From the IMG/VR virus record IMGVR_UViG_2925939204_000001: 64,000 bases of DNA; one strand, written 5' to 3'. Both the position numbers and the translations under genes were made by a program. How positions within the stretch are numbered: the first letter of the stretch is position 1; each line of letters starts with the position of its first letter. Under the pieces are notes generated by a model. It made no database searches. It saw only the letters and a list, made by a program, of their open reading frames with translations, and was not told the origin of the DNA. Below are positions 6,190 to 64,000 of the stretch, one piece after another. Source of the DNA: a virus. Taxonomy: Duplodnaviria > Heunggongvirae > Uroviricota > Caudoviricetes.

Positions 6190-7170
6190 GTGGCCCAGGA
6201 GTTACAACAATATTTTCTACAGTCAGTGCTCATTAACGATAACAAAGTGCCACGAGACTGGATTTTTACCGCAGTATATGTAGAAAAAACCAGCCTCAAA
6301 GCCCCTTTGCTAAAACTGGAAATTCATGACGCTACCGGCACCGTAATTGATGACTGGAAAGCCAAATACGGTGCATCGCTGGTGGCTGAAATGGGCGATC
6401 CAAACGGTAATGCAGGCACTTTTAAAACAGATTTCTTTGTTACGTCTGCAATGCTGGCTGGTGATGTTGTTACCGTTATTGCTGTCAGTGAAGACGTGCG
6501 CAGGTTTAAGATCCCCTCCCCGCGCACAAATTTACATACCAACAAAACACCAGACGCTATATTCAAGGCATATTCCGGCAAACTTAAAATTACCAGCAGC
6601 GTGCTAAAACGCGCAGTTACATATCATCTGAATGCCGGTGACAAACCGTCAAAAATGCTTTCGGAGATAGCGCGAGACAAAGGTGCATTGTGTTGGGTAT
6701 GTCGGGGGGAATTTAACTTTTACACCCTGGCTGATCTGATGAAGCAAACGCCATCATTTACCTACGAGGGGAATAACCCTAAAGCAGAATACACTTTGTC
6801 CAAAATGCGCCTACTCCAACAGGAACATGCGACAACAGCAAAGAATCAATATCGTTTTGTTGGGTATTCCATGACCGATGGCTACGTCGAATATGGCGAT
6901 AGCTCACTCCCAGTGCGTTATATATCCGACTCTGATATGGAAACTCTTCGCAATATGCAGCTGTCTCTCGTCCCCAAAATGGATATAGAAGTCGCAGGCA
7001 ATCCTGATATAAAACCGGGGATGGTAATAGAGATTATCGTATACCGCTATGACCAGGAAAACCGCATTGATGAATCAATGCCCCGTAAGCTGATAGTAAA
7101 AAATGTTGCGCACTTTGAGGACCGCGTAGGCTACACAACACGAATGATATTGGGAGTGCCTAACAAATGA
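6190..7170 (+). CDS. hypothetical protein, tail/baseplate module (326 aa)
   Basis: Operon context; no motif recognised. Confidence 0.5.
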   Translation: MAQELQQYFLQSVLINDNKVPRDWIFTAVYVEKTSLKAPLLKLEIHDATGTVIDDWKAKYGASLVAEMGDPNGNAGTFKTDFFVTSAMLAGDVVTVIAVSEDVRRFKIPSPRTNLHTNKTPDAIFKAYSGKLKITSSVLKRAVTYHLNAGDKPSKMLSEIARDKGALCWVCRGEFNFYTLADLMKQTPSFTYEGNNPKAEYTLSKMRLLQQEHATTAKNQYRFVGYSMTDGYVEYGDSSLPVRYISDSDMETLRNMQLSLVPKMDIEVAGNPDIKPGMVIEIIVYRYDQENRIDESMPRKLIVKNVAHFEDRVGYTTRMILGVPNK

Positions 7171-7820
7171 AGCGTAGAGCGCAAATTGTTGGAACTGTGC
7201 ACCCGGCAGGGCTTATGCGTGCTCAAGTCCGTGTTTTACCTGACTGGAATGGCGTTCCTGATGACGATCTACCCTGGGCGGAATACCAGTTACCCATCGG
7301 GAACGCTTTTGTACCTACAGTCAAAGGTGACCTGGTCTGGGTAGAGTTTCCTTATTTAGATGTTAACGGTCGAATAGACACCAGACGCCCAATGATAGTT
7401 GGTGCCGCTCAGGATGCACCGGGAGGAATTCCAAACGTTGCACCAGAAGCATCTGGTAAAGGCAACGGCTGGACGCCGCCGGAAGTAGATGGAGCACCTC
7501 CCCGCCCCCAAATCTCAGCAACGAAAGACTTCGTTATTCACCGCAACAATATTCTTGAAGTACGAACTGCTGGTGGCGGCTATGAAATTGCCAATACGGC
7601 AGCAGGCTCAAGGATTGGCATGAATGAGTCCGGGCAGATATATATCATTGGTCCGGCTGATGTAATCGTGAATGCAGGAGGGAGTGTTAACGTCAAATCA
7701 GCCAACAACATCAATGTTAATGGGGAAAATATAGCTGTCACCGCTAACGGAGACATAGCTTTCAAGGCAGGAGGAACCTTTCAGGCCACTGCTGGCAACT
7801 TCGATTTCAAGAAAGGATAG
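7167..7820 (+). CDS. baseplate spike-like protein candidate (217 aa)
   Basis: 4-nt overlap with upstream gene; Gly/Asn-rich repeats (NAGGSVNVKSANNINVNGENIAVTANGDIAF) suggest a beta-helical spike. Confidence 0.45.
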   Translation: MKRRAQIVGTVHPAGLMRAQVRVLPDWNGVPDDDLPWAEYQLPIGNAFVPTVKGDLVWVEFPYLDVNGRIDTRRPMIVGAAQDAPGGIPNVAPEASGKGNGWTPPEVDGAPPRPQISATKDFVIHRNNILEVRTAGGGYEIANTAAGSRIGMNESGQIYIIGPADVIVNAGGSVNVKSANNINVNGENIAVTANGDIAFKAGGTFQATAGNFDFKKG

Positions 7821-7830
7821 AAAATGCACC

Positions 7831-7872
7831 CATTTGTGTTAGATAATTAATATGTATTTTCTAACACAAATG
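7831..7872. promoter_or_regulatory. operator-like 13-bp perfect inverted repeat CATTTGTGTTAGA-N16-TCTAACACAAATG
   Basis: Arms 7831-7843 and 7860-7872; AT-rich spacer TAATTAATATGTATTT; 8 nt upstream of rdgC start. Confidence 0.6.
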
Positions 7873-7879
7873 GTGAGAC

Positions 7880-8785
7880 ATGAGATCAGTCGCTTTCAAA
7901 AATATCTTCATCTATCGTCTTTCACGCGAAGTTAGCTGGGATACTGCAGAAGTAAATGCAGCCCTTAGCAAGTTTGTGTTTACCCCATGCGGTTCTCAGG
8001 ATATGGCTAAAGCTGGTTGGACCTCCGTTCTTGGTGACAACCTCACCCATGAATACCAGGGTTTTCTTCTGATACAGCATAAACGAGAGGAAAAAATCCT
8101 ACCTTCTCAAGTGCTCAAAGAAGAGTTACAGAAAAAAATCCTGACACTTGAAGAAGAGCAAGACAGAAAGCTGAAGAAGACCGAAAAAGATTCGCTGAAG
8201 GATGAAGTGCTTCACTCTCTTCTTCCTCGTGCTTTCACGAGAAAATCACTCGCCAAAATCCTGATCGACCGCAGCAACCATCTGGTATTCGTTGAGGCAA
8301 GCAGCGCCAAAAAGGCAGAGGACCAGCTGGCTTTATTGCGAAAATCGCTCGGCAGCCTGCCTGTCATTCCATTCACACCACGCGAACCGCTGGAAATTAC
8401 AATGACCGAGTGGTTTAAAAACGGCTTCCCTGCCGGATTTACAGCAGGTGAAGACGCCACATTAAAGGGTCTGCTCGATAATGGTGGTGCCGTTCGCTGC
8501 AACAAAGTTGATCTACAGTCCGACGAGATTATGTCTCACATTGAGGCGGGGAAAGTAGCTACGACCGTTGCAATTAACTGGATGGACCGCGCGTCGTTCA
8601 GAGTCAACGATGATATGAGTATCAAAGCCCTGACATTCTGTGATGATCTCTATGACCAGAACGACGATATCGACCGGGAGGATGTAGCACAACGATTTGA
8701 TGCTGATTTCGTGCTCTTTACGGGCGAATTATCTGCACTGTTTAACGCGCTGGTGGAGGCCATTGGCGGTGAAGCAGAACGTTAA
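7880..8785 (+). CDS. rdgC: recombination-associated protein RdgC
   Basis: Near-colinear match to E. coli RdgC ([51 protein letters not shown]-terminal [16 protein letters not shown]...GGEA). Confidence 0.9.
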
Positions 8786-10925
8786 CCTTCGATATGGTTC
8801 AGTTTGCAGTGGAATTGAAGCCGCGAGCATTGCCTGGGAACCGTTGGGTATGCGTCCGGCGTGGTTTGCTGAAATTGAGCCTTTTCCATCTGCCGTTCTT
8901 GCGCACCGCTGGCCTCATATCGCCAACCTTGGCGATATGACAAAACTTGCCAAAAAAGTCCTGGCTGGGGAAATCGAATCCCCTGATGTGCTCGTCGGGG
9001 GAACACCTTGTCAGGCATTCAGTATCGCGGGATTACGTGGTGGGCTTGATGATGAGCGCGGCGCGCTAACTTTGAAGTATGTGGAGCTTGCAAATGCAAT
9101 TGACGACAAACGGTCTGAGTCCTTCCTCAAACCGACAGTTATCGTCTGGGAAAATGTCCCAGGAGTCCTGTCATCGGCAGATAACGCCTTCGGATGTTTC
9201 CTTGCCGGATTGGCTGGAGAAGATGCACCATTTGAACCAGGTGATCGACCTGAATCAGGAAAAAGTAACGCGTTCTGGCGGTGGGATGGCAAAACCGGTT
9301 GCCATGCTCCAAAGTGGCCGCAGTGTGGTTGTATTTATGGACCGCAGCGAAAGGTGGCCTGGAGAATACTTGATGCCCAATACTTCGGAGTGGCACAACG
9401 ACGCCGACGCGTGTTTGTTGTCGCAAGTGCTCGAACAGACCTCGATCCCGCAACGGTACTTTTTGAGTTCGAAGGCGTGCGCCGGGATATTGCGCCGAGC
9501 AGAGGCGAGGGGAAGGAAGTTGCCGGAAATGTTGGAAATGGCATTAAAAGCGGGAGCCATTGGGATAACCCTGTAAATCCTCACCCGACACTTGCCCGAT
9601 CGCACAATACCGGCGGGACGGGTGCAAGCAACCAGGAGATTTTTTCACAGCGCGGAAGTGGGCTTGTCGGTGCTTACCGGATGGTAGCATTTGGTGAGTA
9701 TGCGGATGATGAGGCGGCTTCCACGGTCAAGGCCAGAGATTTTAAGGATGCAACCGACCTGGCTGTTTTTGACAGTGCGAACGTCGGAGTGGCAGTACGT
9801 CGCTTAACGCCTGTCGAGTGCGAACGCCTGCAGGGCTTTCCTGACGGGCACACGTTGATCCCTACGGAAAAGCGTAAAAAAGTTTCTTCAGATGAACTGG
9901 CATACCTTCGCAATCACTATCCAGATTTAAGCGAAGAAGAGGCCGCGATGCTTGCAGCTGACGGACCGCGTTACAAAGCGATCGGCAACAGCATGGCAGT
10001 TCCTGTTATGCAATGGATAGGGTGTCGCATTCTTGCGACCGTAGCGGATAAACAGCAAAAAACAATAAATACCATTACCTACACAAGAAAACTCCGGACT
10101 CCGGATGAATATGAACGCCCAATATTCAAATGGGTAGGCGGTAAATTCTCAGAGTTGCCTACAGTGCTTGAGCATCTACCACACGGCAAGCGGTTAATAG
10201 AACCATTCGTTGGTGGCGGTTCCGTATTTACGAATGCAGGATTTCGCCACAACCTGCTTAATGATATTAACGGTGACCTGATTAACTTCTATCAGACATT
10301 GCAGCGAGAGGGACATTCGCTCGTCACGCTGGCATATAGTTTTTTCAAAAATTACAACAACGCTGACGCTTACCTCGAAGTGCGCGAGGCATTTAACAGA
10401 GGAAAGTATGACCAGCTACATCATGCTGCCGCCTTTTTGTACCTTAATCGGCACTGTTTTAATGGCGTAACGCGGTACAACCAAAATGGCGAGTTCAACG
10501 TGGGGTATGGCAAATACAAAGCGCCCTACTTCCCACATGCAGAGATGGAGGCATTTTTGGCTGATGACGTACTCAAAAACACGTCCTTTGTATCAGGTGA
10601 CTTTGCTGGCGTCATCGAGGCGGCTGGTGAAGGCGATGTGATTTTTTGCGATCCGCCGTATGAACCGCTGCCGGATACAGAAGGGTTTACCAGTTATTCA
10701 GGAAATAGCTTCCGTTTCGACGAACAGAAACGGCTGGTATCTCTATTGGTGGAAGCCCACCAGCGCGGCGCTAAGGTAGTGATAACAAATAGTGGTGCGC
10801 CAAACATCCGTGAACTATATGAACGAAACGGGTTTAAAGTACATCATATGGCAGCCAGACGGTCGGTGTCCTGCAAGGCGTCAACACGTGTAGTTGCTAA
10901 CGATATAATTGCAATAATGAAGTAA
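8697..10925 (+). CDS. dmt: bifunctional DNA methyltransferase: N-terminal C5-cytosine MTase fused to C-terminal Dam-like N6-adenine MTase (P1 Dmt-like)
   Basis: C5 motifs [23 protein letters not shown] (PCQ), VWENVPG (ENV); Dam-like KWVGGK and FCDPPYEP (DPPY). Start uncertain: in-frame GTG at 8769 or TTG 8763 more likely than 8697/8700, which overlap rdgC by ~86 nt. Confidence 0.85.
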
Positions 10926-10957
10926 AAAACGCCGCAGTAGCGGCGTTTACTTTTTTA
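10926..10957. terminator. bidirectional rho-independent terminator (AACGCCGC-AGTA-GCGGCGTT flanked by A- and T-runs)
   Basis: Perfect 8-bp stem with TTTTTT after and AAAAA before; sits between convergent dmt and glnS. Confidence 0.7.
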
Positions 10958-10973
10958 TGTGGCGAAATACCTA

Positions 10974-12635
10974 TTAACCTAACTTCGCCCAGGTATCACG
11001 CAGCCCAACGGTGCGGTTAAATACCGGTTTTTCCGCCGTAGAATGGCGGCTGTCGAGGCAGAAATAACCTTCACGCTCAAACTGGAATGCTTTACCCGCT
11101 ACCGCTTCTTTCAGCGACGGTTCAGCAAAACCCTGTTTGATCACCAGCGATTCCGGGTTAATCACCGACAGGAAATCATCCGCAGCACCTGGGTTCGGCA
11201 CGCTGAACAGACGATCGTACAGGCGGATTTCAACCGGCAGCGCATGTGCCGCGCTCACCCAGTGAATAACGCCTTTCACTTTACGACCATCTGCCGGATC
11301 TTTGCTTAAGGTGTCGGCGTCATAAGTACAGAAGATGGTGGTGATATTGCCTTCGGCATCTTTCTCCACGCGTTCAGCCTTAATGACGTAAGCATTACGC
11401 AGACGCACTTCTTTACCCAGCACCAGACGTTTGTACTGCTTGTTAGCTTCTTCGCGGAAATCGGCGCGGTCGATCCAAATCTCACCGCTAAACGGCACCT
11501 GACGGCTACCCATTTCCGGTTTGTTTGGATGGTTCGGCATGGTGACCATTTCGCCTTCGCCCTGGTAGTTTTCGATAACCAGTTTCACCGGATCGATAAC
11601 CGCCATTGCGCGCGGCGCATTTTCGTTGAGATCTTCACGGATGCAGGATTCCAGCGACGCCATCTCAATGGTGTTGTCCTGCTTGGTCACGCCGATGCGT
11701 TTGCAGAACTCACGAATAGAAGCCGCAGTGTAACCACGACGACGCAGACCGGAAATGGTCGGCATACGCGGGTCATCCCAGCCTTCAACGTGCTTGTCGG
11801 TCACCAGCAGGTTCAGCTTACGCTTGGACATCACAGTGTATTCCAGATTCAGGCGCGAAAATTCGTACTGGCGCGGGTGAACAGGAATGGTGATGTTGTC
11901 CAGTACCCAGTCATACAGACGACGGTTGTCCTGGAACTCAAGCGTACACAGAGAGTGCGTAATACCTTCCAGCGCATCGCTGATGCAGTGGGTGAAGTCG
12001 TACATCGGGTAGATGCACCACTTGTTGCCAGTCTGGTGATGTTCAGCAAACTTAATGCGGTACAGCACCGGGTCGCGCATCACGATAAACGGCGAAGCCA
12101 TGTCGATTTTCGCACGCAGGCAGGCTTTACCTTCTTCAAAACCACCGGCACGCATTTTTTCGAACAGCGCCAGGTTCTCTTCAACGCTGCGGTCGCGGTA
12201 CGGGCTGTTTTTACCCGGCTGCGTCAGGGTGCCGCGGTATTCGCGGATCTGTTCCGGCGTCAGTTCGTCAACATACGCCAGGCCTTTGTTGATCAGTTCA
12301 ACAGCATAGGCATGGAGTTTGTCAAAATAATCGGAGGAGTAACGGATGTTGCCAGACCAGTGAAAACCTAACCATTCAACGTCGTTTTTAATCGACTCGA
12401 CGTACTCGATATCTTCTTTTACCGGGTTAGTGTCGTCGAAACGCAGGTTGCACTGGCCTTTATAGTCCTGGGCGATCCCGAAGTTCAGGCAGATAGATTT
12501 CGCATGACCAATATGCAGATAGCCATTCGGTTCCGGCGGGAAACGGGTATGTACTGTGGTGTGCTTACCACTGGCCAGATCTTCATCGATGATCTGACGA
12601 ATAAAGTTAGTCGGGCGGGCTTCTGCCTCACTCAT
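10974..12635 (-). CDS. glnS: glutaminyl-tRNA synthetase (host-like, full length 553 aa)
   Basis: Essentially colinear with E. coli GlnRS from [20 protein letters not shown], incl. class I HIGH motif (PNGYLHIGH) and VMSKR (KMSKS-type) motif. Confidence 0.95.
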
Positions 12636-12802
12636 TGTGGATTCCTCAAAGCGTAAACAACGTATAACAGCGTATGATCTTATAAGCCGAATAGGCTGAC
12701 AACCACTAGTTGATTAGAAATTACTTTCTATCGTTATTTCAATAATGAGCTTTTTCATGAAGCCCACTTTTGCGCATAAGTAAATTAATGACAAATGGTA
12801 CA

Positions 12803-12868
12803 CAATTGGAACCAAAAAGGATGTAAAGGTGCACCAAATTAGTGGTGTATTGGTGCACCTTTGGTTCA
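12803..12868. repeat. palindromic element AAAGGTGCACCAA-N12-TTGGTGCACCTTT with flanking TTGGAACC/GGTTCAA arms
   Basis: Perfect 13-bp inverted repeat (12825-12837 / 12850-12862) just downstream of the parA/RHH operon; candidate centromere or operator. Confidence 0.4.
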
Positions 12869-17466: not shown

Positions 17467-17493
17467 GCTTCACAAAATCTATATAGCTATTTT

Positions 17494-17505
17494 ATGTTAG
17501 AAAAA
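17494..17505 (+). promoter_or_regulatory. operator-like motif ATGTTAGAAAAA
   Basis: Member of dispersed TGTGTTAGAAAA family; ~55 bp upstream of the locus-A promoter. Confidence 0.4.
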
Positions 17506-17557
17506 TAATTTGAATTTTCGAACATAAACAATAAAATAAATCATCAAAAATTTGATG

Positions 17558-17586
17558 TTGATCTTCCATGTTTTCAGGCTTATATT
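17558..17586 (+). promoter_or_regulatory. sigma70-type promoter TTGATC-N17-TATATT of immunity locus A
   Basis: Near-consensus -35/-10 with 17-nt spacer; identical promoter at 51207-51235. Confidence 0.6.
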
Positions 17587-17592
17587 CACGCC

Positions 17593-17833
17593 GTTGCAGC
17601 AAATTCTGCGACCGGGTTTAGCAGCCTGAATGTACATGCGGACAACCGCAGATATCCGATATTGCGGTATTTTTGTGTCCGTAAAACCATGTTACGCCCG
17701 AATTATGGTGGGGCGTGATGGGGAGGCTTCGGCCTGCTGGTTTCATGTACGCCAGTCTGCTAACCCCGTCACGTCCTGCCACCCGTTTAGCAGCGGGTAG
17801 CAGGTTGTTAAACCTGTACATGAGGCCGTAACT
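17593..17833 (+). ncRNA. c4-like antisense RNA / leader region of immI-like locus A
   Basis: Sites a1/b1 (17617-17638), complementary b'/a' (17744-17763) and a2/b2 (17786-17822) overlapping the SD of the next ORF; all six sites co-vary in paralogue B. Confidence 0.5.
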
Positions 17834-19487: not shown

Positions 19488-19500
19488 AACTCTAATGATT

Positions 19501-19512
19501 TGTGTTAGAAAA
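19501..19512 (+). promoter_or_regulatory. operator-like motif TGTGTTAGAAAA
   Basis: In divergent intergenic region between 19487 gene and capsid gene; adjacent to AAATCACA element at 19521. Confidence 0.4.
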
Positions 19513-19575
19513 CTAAAATTAAATCACATAACAACATGCGTGTTAATAGATTTTATTTTACTAAACCTATTGACT

Positions 19576-49906: not shown

Positions 49907-49924
49907 TCGCCTCGTTAAGTTAAA

Positions 49925-49934
49925 TTTCTAACAT
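49925..49934 (-). promoter_or_regulatory. operator-like motif (ATGTTAGAAA on minus strand)
   Basis: TTTCTAACAT next to near-palindrome AGTGTAT-TTAT-ATACACT. Confidence 0.35.
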
Positions 49935-51069: not shown

Positions 51070-51122
51070 CCTGTGCGTCTACAAAACATCCCAATGATCG
51101 GAAAATGCTCGCTCGATAATTT

Positions 51123-51134
51123 GTGTTAGAAAAT
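51123..51134 (+). promoter_or_regulatory. operator-like motif TGTGTTAGAAAA with partial inverted partner TTTCTAA
   Basis: ~70 bp upstream of locus-B promoter. Confidence 0.4.
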
Positions 51135-51206
51135 TAATTTGCTGTTTCTAAATCGGAATGTATGATCTGCATCATCGACTGAAGTCATCCATTGCTGAAA
51201 TTTTTA

Positions 51207-51235
51207 GTTGATCTTCCATGTTTTCAGGCTTATAT
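51207..51235 (+). promoter_or_regulatory. sigma70-type promoter TTGATC-N17-TATATT of immunity locus B
   Basis: Identical to locus A promoter. Confidence 0.6.
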
Positions 51236-51241
51236 TCATGC

Positions 51242-51482
51242 CGTCGTAGCAAATTCTGCGACCAGGTTTGACAGCCTGAATGTTAGTGCGGACAACCGCA
51301 GATTTCCGATATTGCGGTATTTTTGTGTCCGTAAACCGCGTTACGCCCGAATTATGGTGGGGCGTGATGGGGAGGCTTCGGCCTGCTGGTTTCACTAACG
51401 CCAGTCTGTCAACCCTGTCACGTCCTGCCACCTGTTTGACAGCGGGTAGCAGGTTGTTAAACCTGTTAGTGAGGCCGTAACT
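51242..51482 (+). ncRNA. c4-like antisense RNA / leader region of immI-like locus B
   Basis: Sites a1/b1 (51266-51287), b'/a' (51393-51411), a2/b2 (51434-51470) with compensatory differences from locus A. Confidence 0.5.
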
Positions 51483-60854: not shown

Positions 60855-60894
60855 AACAGGTTGGGTAAATGCCATGCGATTTACCCAACCTGTT
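60855..60894. other. perfect 16-bp stem hairpin AACAGGTTGGGTAAAT-N8-ATTTACCCAACCTGTT
   Basis: Directly after stop of 60590 gene; no T-run on plus strand, T-rich on minus. Confidence 0.5.
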
Positions 60895-60986: not shown

Positions 60987-61481
60987 TTGTTGTTATTATT
61001 TCGCATATTTACTATCAATGTGTGTGTTAGAAAAATAGCGCGAAAGAGAAGGCGTCGCAGTGAATATTCTGAAACATCCCCACATGCCGCAGCTCTTAGA
61101 GAACTGGAGAAAAACCCAGATCTAATCAAAAGGAACCATGAGCATTACGAGCAGGTTCGCGTCCTGGACTGGATGTATCGCAATATGCGTTATGTGTATG
61201 AGCATACTCACGCCACTCCAAACGGTGGCCTGCGAGGCATAAGGACGGCAATAAAAATGGTGGCAGAGGGCCAAAAGAAGGGATATCCCGATCTTTCTAT
61301 AGACCTTGCTTGTGGGGGATACCACGGAATGCGCATTGAGATGAAACATGGGAGAAATCGCCTGACTCCCGAACAACTCGTCTGGATGACTCGCCTCACA
61401 GAAGCCGGTTACTACTGCTTTGAGGCGCGCAGTGCCGCTGAAGCCATAAAAGCTATCACGGAGTATGTTTGTCTTGATTAA
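60987..61481 (+). CDS. VRR-NUC domain nuclease (start uncertain)
   Basis: EQVRVLDWMYRN...HATPNGGLRG...GYPDLSIDLACGGYHGMRIEMKHGRNRLTPEQLVWM fits VRR-NUC (PD-(D/E)xK) pattern; only TTG 60987 or GTG 61020 in frame upstream, no SD, operator-like motif overlaps the 5' end. Confidence 0.55.
   Translation: MLLLFRIFTINVCVRKIARKRRRRSEYSETSPHAAALRELEKNPDLIKRNHEHYEQVRVLDWMYRNMRYVYEHTHATPNGGLRGIRTAIKMVAEGQKKGYPDLSIDLACGGYHGMRIEMKHGRNRLTPEQLVWMTRLTEAGYYCFEARSAAEAIKAITEYVCLD
61023..61035 (+). promoter_or_regulatory. operator-like motif TGTGTTAGAAAAA
   Basis: With partial inverted partner TCTAAC at 60981. Confidence 0.4.
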
Positions 61482-62030: not shown

Positions 62031-62066
62031 TTGCATCTTCCGATACTGTCATCAAACTAATAAAAT

Positions 62067-62077
62067 ATGTTAGAAAA
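62067..62077 (+). promoter_or_regulatory. operator-like motif ATGTTAGAAAA
   Basis: ~30 nt upstream of 62106 gene. Confidence 0.4.
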
Positions 62078-62105
62078 CTAATTTAACAAAGTAACGGGAA
62101 TAGCA

Positions 62106-63314
62106 ATGAGTCAACACACTGATACTTCTAATCTGGAAATTATCTCGACAGCAATTGAAACGCTGCGCACACAAATCGCTCTTATACAGAAACGGAATCC
62201 GGGTGATGACCTGTCAAAGCGACTGCACGAGAGTGTCATTGCCACTACAGATAACCTGGTGGCGGAAATCAACAAGCTGCTTGATGATGGGGCAGTTGAT
62301 TACAATAAGCTGGTGGATCAGTTTGAGGAATACCAACAAGCCGTTAATGATGGCTTGATCCGTTTTTCACAAGTCACAGGCGTATCAGCGACAGTTGAAA
62401 GCCTGGGTGATGCAGTTAATCAATTTGCCGCGAATATGCGTAATGAGATCGGCAATCTGGAAGCGCGTCTTGAACAGGCAAATACACTGCGTAAATCTGC
62501 CGAAGCCGATTTGAACCGTTACAAAAAAGACTATCCGCCCAGCCTGACAAAGCGGCTGGATGTTGCGGAGAAGGATAACCGCACGCTGAAAAGAGAGCGC
62601 CGGGAACTAAAAGAGCGTTTAACCAAGCTCAATCAGAAATGCATTGATTATCAAGGCGAAGGCGTCACACTGCGTAAAAAGTTGGCTACAGCGCAGAGCA
62701 TTATCGAAACATTAAAGCGAGAGTGCTCACAGCTTGGTCACGATCTGAACCGTGCTTGTGGCATGGGACAAAGACCAGAGACATTTCCACTTATGTATGA
62801 TGGAAGGGATGCCATTGCCTACATCCATGAGTATCCACACGGCCTGGTTGCGGAAACTGGGCAGCGTGGCGAAGCACTGCTGACGGCTAATTACCATCAA
62901 CAAATCAGAACCAATCGCCTGTTAACGATGGATGTGATCCCATCGGTATGGGGAACGCCGCTTTACTATCGCCTGCCGGGCTTCGAAAAGGACTGGAATA
63001 CCGACATAGACGAATGTCTCGCAGATAAAATTATGGCGTACCTGGAGACGGATTTTCCGCGCTTATATCGCCGGATTATGGACTCTAAGGATGCGCCAAT
63101 CGATGAATTAAAAATGCGTCCGGAGACGCTGGAGGCAATCAAGCAGACGGAGTTTGATACTGTATTCAGTGTGGCCTGCATTCCAAGCTGTTTCCATGAA
63201 AGCATCCCGTTCATGCAAGGAGATCGTCGTCAGGAAATCATTGACGCTTGCCGGGTATGGGCGAACGAATGGGATAAGAAGAATGGGGGTGTAGAAGATC
63301 TTTACGGGAAATAA
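62106..63314 (+). CDS. hypothetical protein with N-terminal coiled coil and C-terminal globular domain (402 aa)
   Basis: Operator-like motif in its upstream region; no motif recognised. Confidence 0.55.
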   Translation: MSQHTDTSNLEIISTAIETLRTQIALIQKRNPGDDLSKRLHESVIATTDNLVAEINKLLDDGAVDYNKLVDQFEEYQQAVNDGLIRFSQVTGVSATVESLGDAVNQFAANMRNEIGNLEARLEQANTLRKSAEADLNRYKKDYPPSLTKRLDVAEKDNRTLKRERRELKERLTKLNQKCIDYQGEGVTLRKKLATAQSIIETLKRECSQLGHDLNRACGMGQRPETFPLMYDGRDAIAYIHEYPHGLVAETGQRGEALLTANYHQQIRTNRLLTMDVIPSVWGTPLYYRLPGFEKDWNTDIDECLADKIMAYLETDFPRLYRRIMDSKDAPIDELKMRPETLEAIKQTEFDTVFSVACIPSCFHESIPFMQGDRRQEIIDACRVWANEWDKKNGGVEDLYGK

Positions 63315-63315
63315 T

Positions 63316-63350
63316 ATGTTAGAAATCTAAAATCACAATTCGAATGTATT
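63316..63350 (+). promoter_or_regulatory. operator-like motif ATGTTAGAAA adjacent to late-promoter-like AAATCACA-N7-TGTATT
   Basis: Same juxtaposition as at 19501-19528. Confidence 0.4.
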
Positions 63351-63458: not shown

Positions 63459-63471
63459 TTAACAAATTAAA

Positions 63472-63482
63472 GTGTTAGAAAA
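63472..63482 (+). promoter_or_regulatory. operator-like motif GTGTTAGAAAA
   Basis: Second motif copy ~155 bp after the one at 63316. Confidence 0.4.
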
Positions 63483-64000
63483 GTATAGTAACGCAAGAGC
63501 ACGCTTTGGCACCGTGCAGGCCAAAGTTCAGCAGGTTTAGTGCGGAAAGTGGTTTCAGAGAGAGCACTTTGCGGAGTAAACGACAATACATGTTGAGCCA
63601 CGGAAGGTCTTTTTAAGGTGTTCATTGATGATGGTCCGGCAGAGAGTAACGGTACATGCTGCATCTAATCATCAATGCACATCTTCAACATTAAGGAGGC
63701 ATAGGGATTTTTGTGGCGGTTACCTTTTGCCCTGAGTCTCCTTAATGTTGCGGTAATGCACCTATGCGGATGTGGCCTTGCATTGTGTCTTGAAAGAATG
63801 GGGTAAGGCCGGGGATATCCCCAGGGGGAGGCACCCCCGCTGCAACGAACAGCCACAGACGGCAGTCGAGTGATGGGAACGTGCAAAGACTTTAAACCTC
63901 GTTATGGCTGGCGTGGCAAACGCGACAACCGAGACAGAGCGGTGACGGGCGGAGAGAGTGCCGCATCAAGAAAGAAGCCGACTTGTGATCCCTTTCAGCG

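Follow-up and report, generated by a model that had tools for sequence, protein, structure and literature searches.

Introduction

The closest described systems are found in two phages, P1, whose genome annotation is reportedly that of Lobocka et al. in 2004, and Escherichia phage D6, whose genome paper is said to be that of Gilcrease and Casjens in 2018. In P1, Odmt(Op68), Pdmt, uhr, hrdC and dmt are annotated as one unit (AF234172). Expression of P1 dmt is held down by C1 and rises strongly when the lytic cycle is induced (PMC4713147), and P1 hrdC and dmt behave alike, as part of the replication/processing module of P1 genes (bioRxiv 10.64898/2025.12.28.696737). The documented role of P1 Dmt is the methylation of GATC sites for pac cleavage and packaging, and dmt is essential in Dam- hosts (reviewed in PMC12707154); on its C5 activity, the P1 record goes no further than "perhaps at C5 cytosine" (AF234172). 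In addition to dmt, P1 C1 directly controls c1/coi, cre (Oc1e), ban, ref, ssb and kilA (AF234172; PMC4713147). Here, we describe the corresponding region in a stretch of 64,000 nucleotides (nt) of the IMG/VR virus record IMGVR_UViG_2925939204_000001, which is referred to as the window. With a probability of about 80%, the region that contains rdgC and dmt is the D6-lineage form of the P1 early operon hrdC-dmt, encoding an RdgC homologue and a fused C5-cytosine/Dam-type methyltransferase under repression by C1.

Judged from its sequence, the window is part of a D6-like, P1-family plasmid prophage. The 3.3 kb around rdgC-dmt include a central replaced segment, on either side of which they are 99.3% identical to phage D6; over their full length, they are 98.6% identical to several ~96-kb Escherichia coli plasmids, on which the RefSeq gene order is baseplate protein, rdgC, Dam-family methyltransferase and glnS. 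In the P1-based annotation of D6, the upstream genes are homologues of P1 genes 7, 24, 6 and 5, and the region itself (D6 orf65/64/63) is annotated as "similar to P1 gene hrdC" and "similar to P1 gene dmt". The pairing of rdgC with a methyltransferase gene, which a preliminary description of this DNA pointed out, is therefore not new: the same arrangement is annotated in both P1 and D6, and the comparisons below point to a lineage variation of the known P1 system rather than to a locus new in kind. Neither c1, which encodes the repressor, nor lpa, which encodes the late activator, was found within the 64-kb window; both lie outside it.

Organization of the rdgC-dmt operon

The operon consists of the following features.

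7880-8785, + strand: rdgC (hrdC homologue), an intact open reading frame (ORF) of 301 amino acids (aa)
8755-8771, + strand: dmt translation initiation region, inside rdgC (GGAGG at 8755-8759, a 9-nt spacer and GTG at 8769)
8769-10925, + strand: dmt, 718 aa, C5-cytosine and Dam-type domains in one ORF
8769-10058, + strand: C5-cytosine methyltransferase domain of dmt (aa ~1-430), followed by a linker
10113-10922, + strand: Dam-type N6-adenine methyltransferase domain of dmt (aa ~449-718; PF02086)
10927-10948, no strand: bidirectional intrinsic terminator common to dmt (+) and the convergent glnS (-)

The rdgC gene is preceded by a Shine-Dalgarno sequence (GGTGAG, 7872-7877), and its product gives a match to the Pfam RdgC family (PF04381) that covers profile positions 3-298 of 298 (E=6e-103). 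The protein shares 59% identity with E. coli RdgC (PDB 2OWL) over the full length, compared to 53% with P1 HrdC, and is thus the more host-like one. The DNA-binding finger segment LLPRAF is kept, with R118 and F120 (E. coli numbering) conserved. In contrast to its E. coli counterpart, this rdgC is a phage-plasmid gene under putative repressor control. An identical protein is found in NCBI on 251 contigs (ARW95340.1), under an accession that adjoins that of Dmt (ARW95341.1). We noticed that the final ~130 nt of rdgC (8653-8785) share 92% nucleotide identity with P1 hrdC, despite the 53% protein identity overall, which may mark a place within rdgC where the P1 and D6 lineages recombined long ago.

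Domain searches identified both methyltransferase domains of Dmt. Its N-terminal part matches PF00145 (C5 DNA methylase) with E=6e-37 and aligns with M.HhaI (E=3e-9), and the motifs GSVCSGIE (I), GTPCQ (IV), ENV (VI), QRRRR (VIII), IX and GNS (X) are readable. The C-terminal part matches PF02086 (D12 N6-adenine methyltransferase) with E=1e-55, covering profile positions 1-252 of 253. It can be aligned with the E. coli Dam structures from one end to the other (E=1e-58) and contains EPFVGGGS, which corresponds to the FxGxG motif for S-adenosylmethionine (AdoMet), as well as DPPY. The C5 and Dam motifs are invariant in an alignment of six homologues, P1 Dmt included. The DPPY and NRxxxNGxxRYN segments are common to the window protein and E. 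coli Dam (PDB 2G1P, 4GBE), from which the Dam domain of the window differs in being fused to a C5 domain and carried on a phage-plasmid under putative repressor control. The identity to P1 Dmt is 79% overall and ~98% over the N-terminal 240 aa. The identical 718-aa protein, counted from GTG 8769, is found in NCBI on 117 contigs (ARW95341.1 and others).

Only four in-frame start codons precede C5 motif I, namely TTG 8697, ATG 8700, TTG 8763 and GTG 8769, and motif I begins 10 codons downstream of the last. The first two are ruled out by an in-frame TAG downstream in four relatives (L023, L024, L031 and L088), and TTG 8763 is less likely because it is only 3 nt from the Shine-Dalgarno sequence. 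GTG 8769 is 9 nt from GGAGG and is equivalent to the start assigned by PGAP. The start of dmt therefore overlaps the 3' end of rdgC by 17 nt. P1 Dmt likewise starts at a GTG that overlaps the hrdC stop codon (GTGA overlap), although there the overlap is 4 nt. With the 17-nt overlap, no terminator-like site between rdgC and dmt in a terminator scan and the terminator after dmt, the two genes are organized as an operon.

The preliminary description, which had been made from the sequence alone, thus proved right wherever it could be checked. It had called the pair an operon, suspected GTG 8769 as the dmt start and named two findings that would speak against it, a disrupted rdgC and an absence of the C5 and Dam-like motifs from domain searches; the frame is undisrupted, with the whole PF04381 profile covered, and PF00145 and PF02086 were both found. 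One point needs correction: an overlap with rdgC had been offered as an alternative to a start at GTG 8769 or TTG 8763, but both codons lie within rdgC.

Exchange of modules behind a fixed start site

Comparison with D6 revealed a mosaic structure. The window is 99.4% identical to D6 over 7000-8785 and 98.5% identical over 10095-12700, and between these two stretches lies the replaced segment:

8786-10094, + strand: mosaic segment (C5 domain and linker), P1-like, replacing 731 nt of D6

The two sequences diverge exactly at the rdgC stop codon, and P1-like sequence, at 92% nucleotide identity, extends over 8653-9499. Gene 5, the palindrome described below, rdgC, most of the Dam domain, the terminator and glnS are 99.3-99.4% identical to those around D6 orf65-orf64-orf63 (MF356679); D6, however, has a 226-aa orf64 followed by a separate 301-aa Dam gene in place of one fused C5-Dam protein. 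We examined a D6 cluster that consisted of 26 IMG/VR loci with RdgC at least 60% identical, plus two plasmids. A Dam domain follows rdgC in all 26 loci and both plasmids. The fused P1-like C5 form was found in 9 of the 28 (L010, L023, L024, L028-L031 and the plasmids pHX138 and pPSS-10_3); most loci are of the D6 type. No Dmt-like domain was found after rdgC in ~50 loci with RdgC ~55% identical.

D6 orf64 had no Pfam C5 match and was matched only by a PHROG family annotated as "DNA methyltransferase" (phrog_757). Its assignment as a C5 methyltransferase is not upheld, given the lack of any Pfam match. Although unrelated to the C5 domain of dmt, orf64 uses the same GTG and Shine-Dalgarno sequence inside rdgC (8769-8785 of the window; L001 5070-5090). 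The start site inside rdgC would thus act as a fixed socket for exchangeable modules, either a P1-like multi-cassette C5 domain or orf64.

These observations bear on whether rdgC belongs with dmt at all. It could be a host-derived passenger that is functionally unrelated to dmt, with the adjacency reflecting only the shared ancestry of P1 and D6, in keeping with an RdgC that is closer to the E. coli protein (59%) than to P1 HrdC (53%) and with the many other phage contigs in which rdgC has no adjoining Dmt. We consider this quite improbable: the ribosome-binding site and start codon of dmt are embedded in the 3' end of rdgC and have been retained despite replacement by an unrelated module, the linkage is present in every P1- and D6-cluster locus examined, and the finger residues R118 and F120 are conserved.

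Between C5 motifs VIII and IX we noticed a hypervariable block (9480-9795, Dmt aa ~238-342) with cassette-like insertions and deletions among alleles. The block contains repeated P-T/S/C-L elements, and alleles differ by the presence or absence of cassettes; in P1 Dmt it is ~36 aa longer. The alignable full-length fused Dmt alleles are 718, 754, 762 and 854 aa long. In C5 enzymes, the block between motifs VIII and IX is the target-specificity determinant. Its variation here suggests a variable number of target-recognition modules and possibly a multispecific enzyme. The multispecific C5 methyltransferases of the Bacillus phages SPR, phi3T and rho11s may be comparable, as phage-borne orphan enzymes with a variable, apparently modular VIII-IX block.

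The palindrome upstream of rdgC is a putative C1 operator

The 59-nt gap between gene 5 and rdgC contains an extended palindrome, and related sites occur elsewhere in the window.

7818-7847, + strand: predicted sigma-70 promoter (TAGAAA, 18-nt spacer, GATAAT), 9 of 12 consensus matches
7830-7873, no strand: extended palindrome between gene 5 (baseplate; stop codon 7818-7820) and rdgC, holding two operator half-sites
7832-7848, + strand: operator half-site a, ATTTGTGTTAGATAATT, whose GATAAT at 7842-7847 doubles as the predicted -10 element
7855-7871, - strand: operator half-site b, ATTTGTGTTAGAAAATA, facing site a 3'-end to 3'-end with a 23-bp offset
17490-17529, no strand: second bivalent operator copy with the same 23-bp geometry, ~50 nt upstream of the first c4-icd-ant locus; matching is looser
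19498-19514, + strand: single operator copy in the divergent intergenic region between the D6 orf52 homologue and the major capsid gene
51119-51135, + strand: single operator copy with the exact consensus, ~95 nt upstream of the second c4-icd-ant locus

The palindrome has arms of 14 nt that are perfect, or of 18 nt at 94%, around an 8-nt loop. A search for perfect inverted repeats (arm length 12 nt or more, loop length up to 20 nt) gave 11 overlapping matches at 4 loci in the window, compared to a mean of 0.13 in 30 shuffles. The palindrome was kept in all 26 D6-cluster loci and both plasmids. It is composed of two inverted copies of the 17-mer ATTTGTGTTAGA(A/T)AAT(T/A), which occurs four times in the window at up to 3 mismatches vs. 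0.21 expected. The left half-site has GATAAT where the consensus has GAAAAT, and this hexamer is invariant in 14 distinct relatives. The promoter with GATAAT is the only promoter-like match upstream of rdgC, and the transcription start predicted from it (~7854) falls within the palindrome.

An exact-core regular-expression scan for TGTTAGAAAA(C/T)TAA found 13 copies in D6, and a scan that allowed 1 mismatch gave 19-26 matches per complete D6-like genome, some of them intragenic. In D6-like genomes, operator copies are located upstream of c1, lpa, ref, cre, repL, both c4-icd-ant loci and rdgC; core scans of these genomes found none before the sheath, tube, sit, tail-fiber, holin, darA, portal and darB operons. 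The C1 of D6 (orf1) is syntenic with P1 C1 and is its distant homologue (21% identity, E=2e-8). Given this synteny and the match between the distribution of the 17-mer and the P1 C1 regulon, the palindrome is most likely a bivalent D6-type C1 operator that overlaps the operon promoter. The recurrent 17-mer and its regulon-like distribution also bear out the suggestion in the preliminary description that the palindrome is an operator-type site. Two other candidate roles were rejected: no copy of the 17-mer precedes the structural late operons in the window, which argues against an Lpa late-promoter element, and the palindrome has an AT-rich stem followed by GTGAGACATG, without a U-tract, and was negative in the terminator scan, which argues against an intrinsic terminator.

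The putative operator differs from that of P1 in several respects. Its sequence is ATTTGTGTTAGAAAATT, compared to ATTGCTCTAATAAATTT in P1, and it is bivalent and palindromic (23-bp offset), in contrast to the monovalent Odmt. The P1 bivalent operators Obanab/Op72ab and Oc1ab/Op99ab likewise consist of asymmetric 17-bp half-sites that are inverted, have their 3' ends facing and overlap a sigma-70 promoter. The half-sites of these P1 operators overlap, however (11-bp offset), whereas those of the window are 6 bp apart, corresponding to approximately one extra helical turn, and the window palindrome extends past the operator core with an extension that co-varies among relatives. The arrangement is otherwise that of P1, with an RdgC-family gene immediately before the bifunctional methyltransferase gene on the same strand, a dmt GTG start that overlaps the end of the preceding gene and a C1-type operator, putative in the window, at the promoter. 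The operon of the window lacks uhr, which is not a defining gene of this operon type and for which the gap after gene 5 leaves no room (no ORF would fit), and it follows the baseplate gene 5 cluster, whereas that of P1 follows upfC.

Several further observations concern the other operator copies and palindromes. C4 antisense RNA and its a1b1 targets (Rfam RF01695, RF03163) were found at 17580-17786 and 51230-51435; both loci are complete, each with its own icd/ant-like genes and upstream operator, and a duplication of the C4 locus was noted earlier for pYU39_89 (PMC6799933). With operators before the C4/a1b1-icd-ant loci, two of the sites are located where P1 has the immI C1 operator. Upstream of repL, in the region of pmgM and pmgS and on the side of the tRNA cluster, there are further copies of the operator core TGTTAGAAA(A/T), at 49917-49933, 61020-61036, 62063-62079, 63312-63330 and 63468-63486, which would widen the predicted C1 regulon of D6-like elements. 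Two other perfect palindromes are located at 60855-60894 (arms of at least 18 nt), ~130 nt upstream of the operator-like site at 61020, and at 12825-12862 (13-nt arms), ~190 nt upstream of the start of glnS. The latter gene, for glutaminyl-tRNA synthetase (10974-12635, - strand), is convergent with dmt in both the window and D6. It is missing at that position, and from the whole annotation, in the D6-like plasmids pPSS-10_3 and pHX138.33gt_1 (L088, L089), in contradiction to the statement that all D6-like genomes carry glnS (PMC6799933).

Symmetric covariation of the palindrome arms

The outer positions of the two arms (7830-7836 with 7867-7873) co-vary symmetrically among relatives. The variants of the outer seven positions, CCATTTG, CCAATTG, CCAATTA, GCAAAACTG and CAATG, are each mirrored in the opposite arm. 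A centered alignment of the 14 distinct relatives shows double-sided changes in 6 of 17 pairs, with 95% of the cells paired. The covariation score was reached by none of 500 shuffles, and sliding the partner by 1-3 columns reduced pairing to ~45%. The co-varying positions are not conserved across the other operator copies of one genome. In pPSS-10_3, the altered flank is not common to the other operators of the same plasmid, which retain ATTTG or TTTTG flanks; an altered repressor specificity was therefore rejected as the source of the covariation. The flanks of the bivalent sites with the same geometry (17490-17529, and those of lpa and ref in pHX138) are not symmetric.

One explanation is that the palindrome is primarily or additionally an RNA hairpin, an intercistronic stem-loop with which the late baseplate transcript would end. 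Such a hairpin could stabilize or partly terminate the late transcript and mask the rdgC ribosome-binding site on read-through RNA, the stem ending in the GG of the rdgC Shine-Dalgarno sequence; transcripts that begin at ~7854 would lack the 5' arm and so be freely translated. The predicted fold of -23.6 kcal/mol (z = -4.3 vs. shuffles) and the double-sided changes are consistent with such a structure, as are the lack of conservation of the co-varying positions in other operators, the confinement of the altered flank in pPSS-10_3 to this site and the asymmetric flanks of the lpa and ref sites of pHX138. The covariation counts, however, are equal for a DNA palindrome and an RNA stem, and the single-sided changes mix G-U-compatible pairs with A-C, T-T and A-G, leaving no clear signature of the RNA strand. 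In addition, the missing U-tract means that the stem is not a canonical intrinsic terminator, the palindromes are degenerate in L028-L030, and the core motif also occurs singly, without a palindrome, at other regulatory sites, so that a protein-binding site is certainly part of the function. We regard this explanation as rather unlikely.

Alternatively, the symmetry may stem from a symmetric constraint on the DNA itself, or it may be neutral. In E. coli, template switching during replication makes long quasi-palindromes more perfect, and such errors could have homogenized the one upstream of rdgC, copying a change in one flank into the other without selection. The 14-18-nt arms and 8-nt loop would suit known template-switching substrates, and double changes are found only at positions that are free in the operator consensus. 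The flanks of the same-geometry sites at 17490-17529 and at lpa and ref of pHX138 have nonetheless not been homogenized, and in L026 and L027 the perfect arms have been lengthened to 16-17 nt, which suggests maintenance over drift. A neutral origin accordingly seems unlikely to us.

The putative operator and the hairpin could also be combined in one reading, in which the palindrome is both an operator and a read-through hairpin and the dmt start in rdgC is the fixed socket for modules. The conserved core would serve as the bivalent C1-type operator over the operon's own early promoter, and the co-varying outer arms would form a hairpin only on transcripts that read through from the late baseplate operon. 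The hairpin might then insulate rdgC-dmt from late transcription, either through the late mRNA, which it would end or stabilize, or through occlusion of the rdgC ribosome-binding site. If so, the same DNA would be bound by a protein in the prophage and act as folded RNA late in infection. We put this combination forward as speculative and on balance improbable.

Expression and function of the operon

We propose that a pair of D6-type C1 molecules (345 aa) binds the two half-sites, each with the core TGTTAGA, and covers the -10 element GATAAT of a weak promoter, so that rdgC-dmt would stay silent as long as the element is a plasmid prophage. Early transcription would follow once a cell is infected or the prophage is induced, with translation of dmt coupled to that of rdgC via the internal start. 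By homology to P1 Dmt and E. coli Dam, the Dam domain would methylate GATC sites on replicating phage DNA. The C5 domain, with its allele-variable target block, would probably methylate cytosines in DNA destined for packaging, as a protection against restriction in the next host; such a role of the C5 domain in antirestriction is plausible but conjectural. E. coli RdgC is a ring that binds double-stranded DNA and inhibits RecA, and by analogy, though likewise as a conjecture, the homologue in the window would probably limit the action of RecA on replicating phage DNA.

Several points weigh against this reading. The P1 operator ATTGCTCTAATAAATTT is absent from the window at up to 3 mismatches. 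A literature search returned no experiments on D6-type C1 or its operators, and full-text searches for the operator motif and for D6-like operators returned nothing relevant. The promoter scan gave no excess of promoter-like sites over shuffles, and the predicted promoter matches the consensus at only 9 of 12 positions; read-through from the upstream baseplate genes may contribute to transcription. Operator recognition alone does not account for the arm symmetry described above, since the outer positions are free in other operators and the flanks of the other bivalent sites are asymmetric. In P1, both hrdC and dmt were non-essential in a screen by CRISPR interference (CRISPRi) in a wild-type host (PMC10695390). 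The GATC cluster in pacA, described next, is also weak, with 5 sites per 170 bp, ~0.2 such clusters expected genome-wide by chance, and it is without the P1 hexamers.

That cluster, which lies outside the window, is the densest GATC cluster of D6 and of plasmid CP066033 and is located in the 5' third of pacA (L006 3715-3885). The methylation-controlled pac site of P1 occupies the same place.

The preliminary description had viewed the fused methyltransferase as an antirestriction tool, and its coupling with RdgC as a means of controlling host recombination or the SOS response while lysogeny is established. The hypervariable VIII-IX block and the exchange of C5 modules between P1-like and D6-like forms would fit a specificity determinant under diversifying pressure, and the rdgC-dmt linkage has been kept even though RdgC is only 53% identical to that of P1. 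On the other hand, no role other than pac methylation is documented for the P1 enzyme, the C5 domain is missing altogether from phage D6, and P1 hrdC and dmt were dispensable in the CRISPRi screen. An action on the SOS response or on recombination is not supported, and neither is expression during establishment, because the P1 operon is C1-repressed and lytically induced, and its function is hence not one of the lysogen (PMC4713147). We therefore find this proposal doubtful as a whole. Given that P1 dmt is repressed by C1 and induced in lytic growth, the operon of the window is expected to be off in an established lysogen, and the comparison of methylomes between a lysogen and a cured host that had been suggested would probably be uninformative.

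Implications

For P1, the operon, its control by a repressor and its products have already been documented; they are likewise annotated in D6-like plasmids, and public databases contain both exact proteins. Three aspects appear to be unreported: the D6-specific operator consensus, the symmetric covariation of the outer arms and the cassette-like swap of the C5 module behind a fixed start in rdgC. For annotation, the start of Dmt is fixed at GTG 8769. The working consensus of the D6-type operator, (T)(G/A)TGTTAGAAAA(C/T)TAA, allows prediction of the early regulon of phage-plasmids that are widespread in E. coli and Salmonella, and the exchange of C5 modules and target-recognition cassettes between P1-like and D6-like elements is relevant to the evasion of restriction and to the interpretation of methylomes of clinical isolates.

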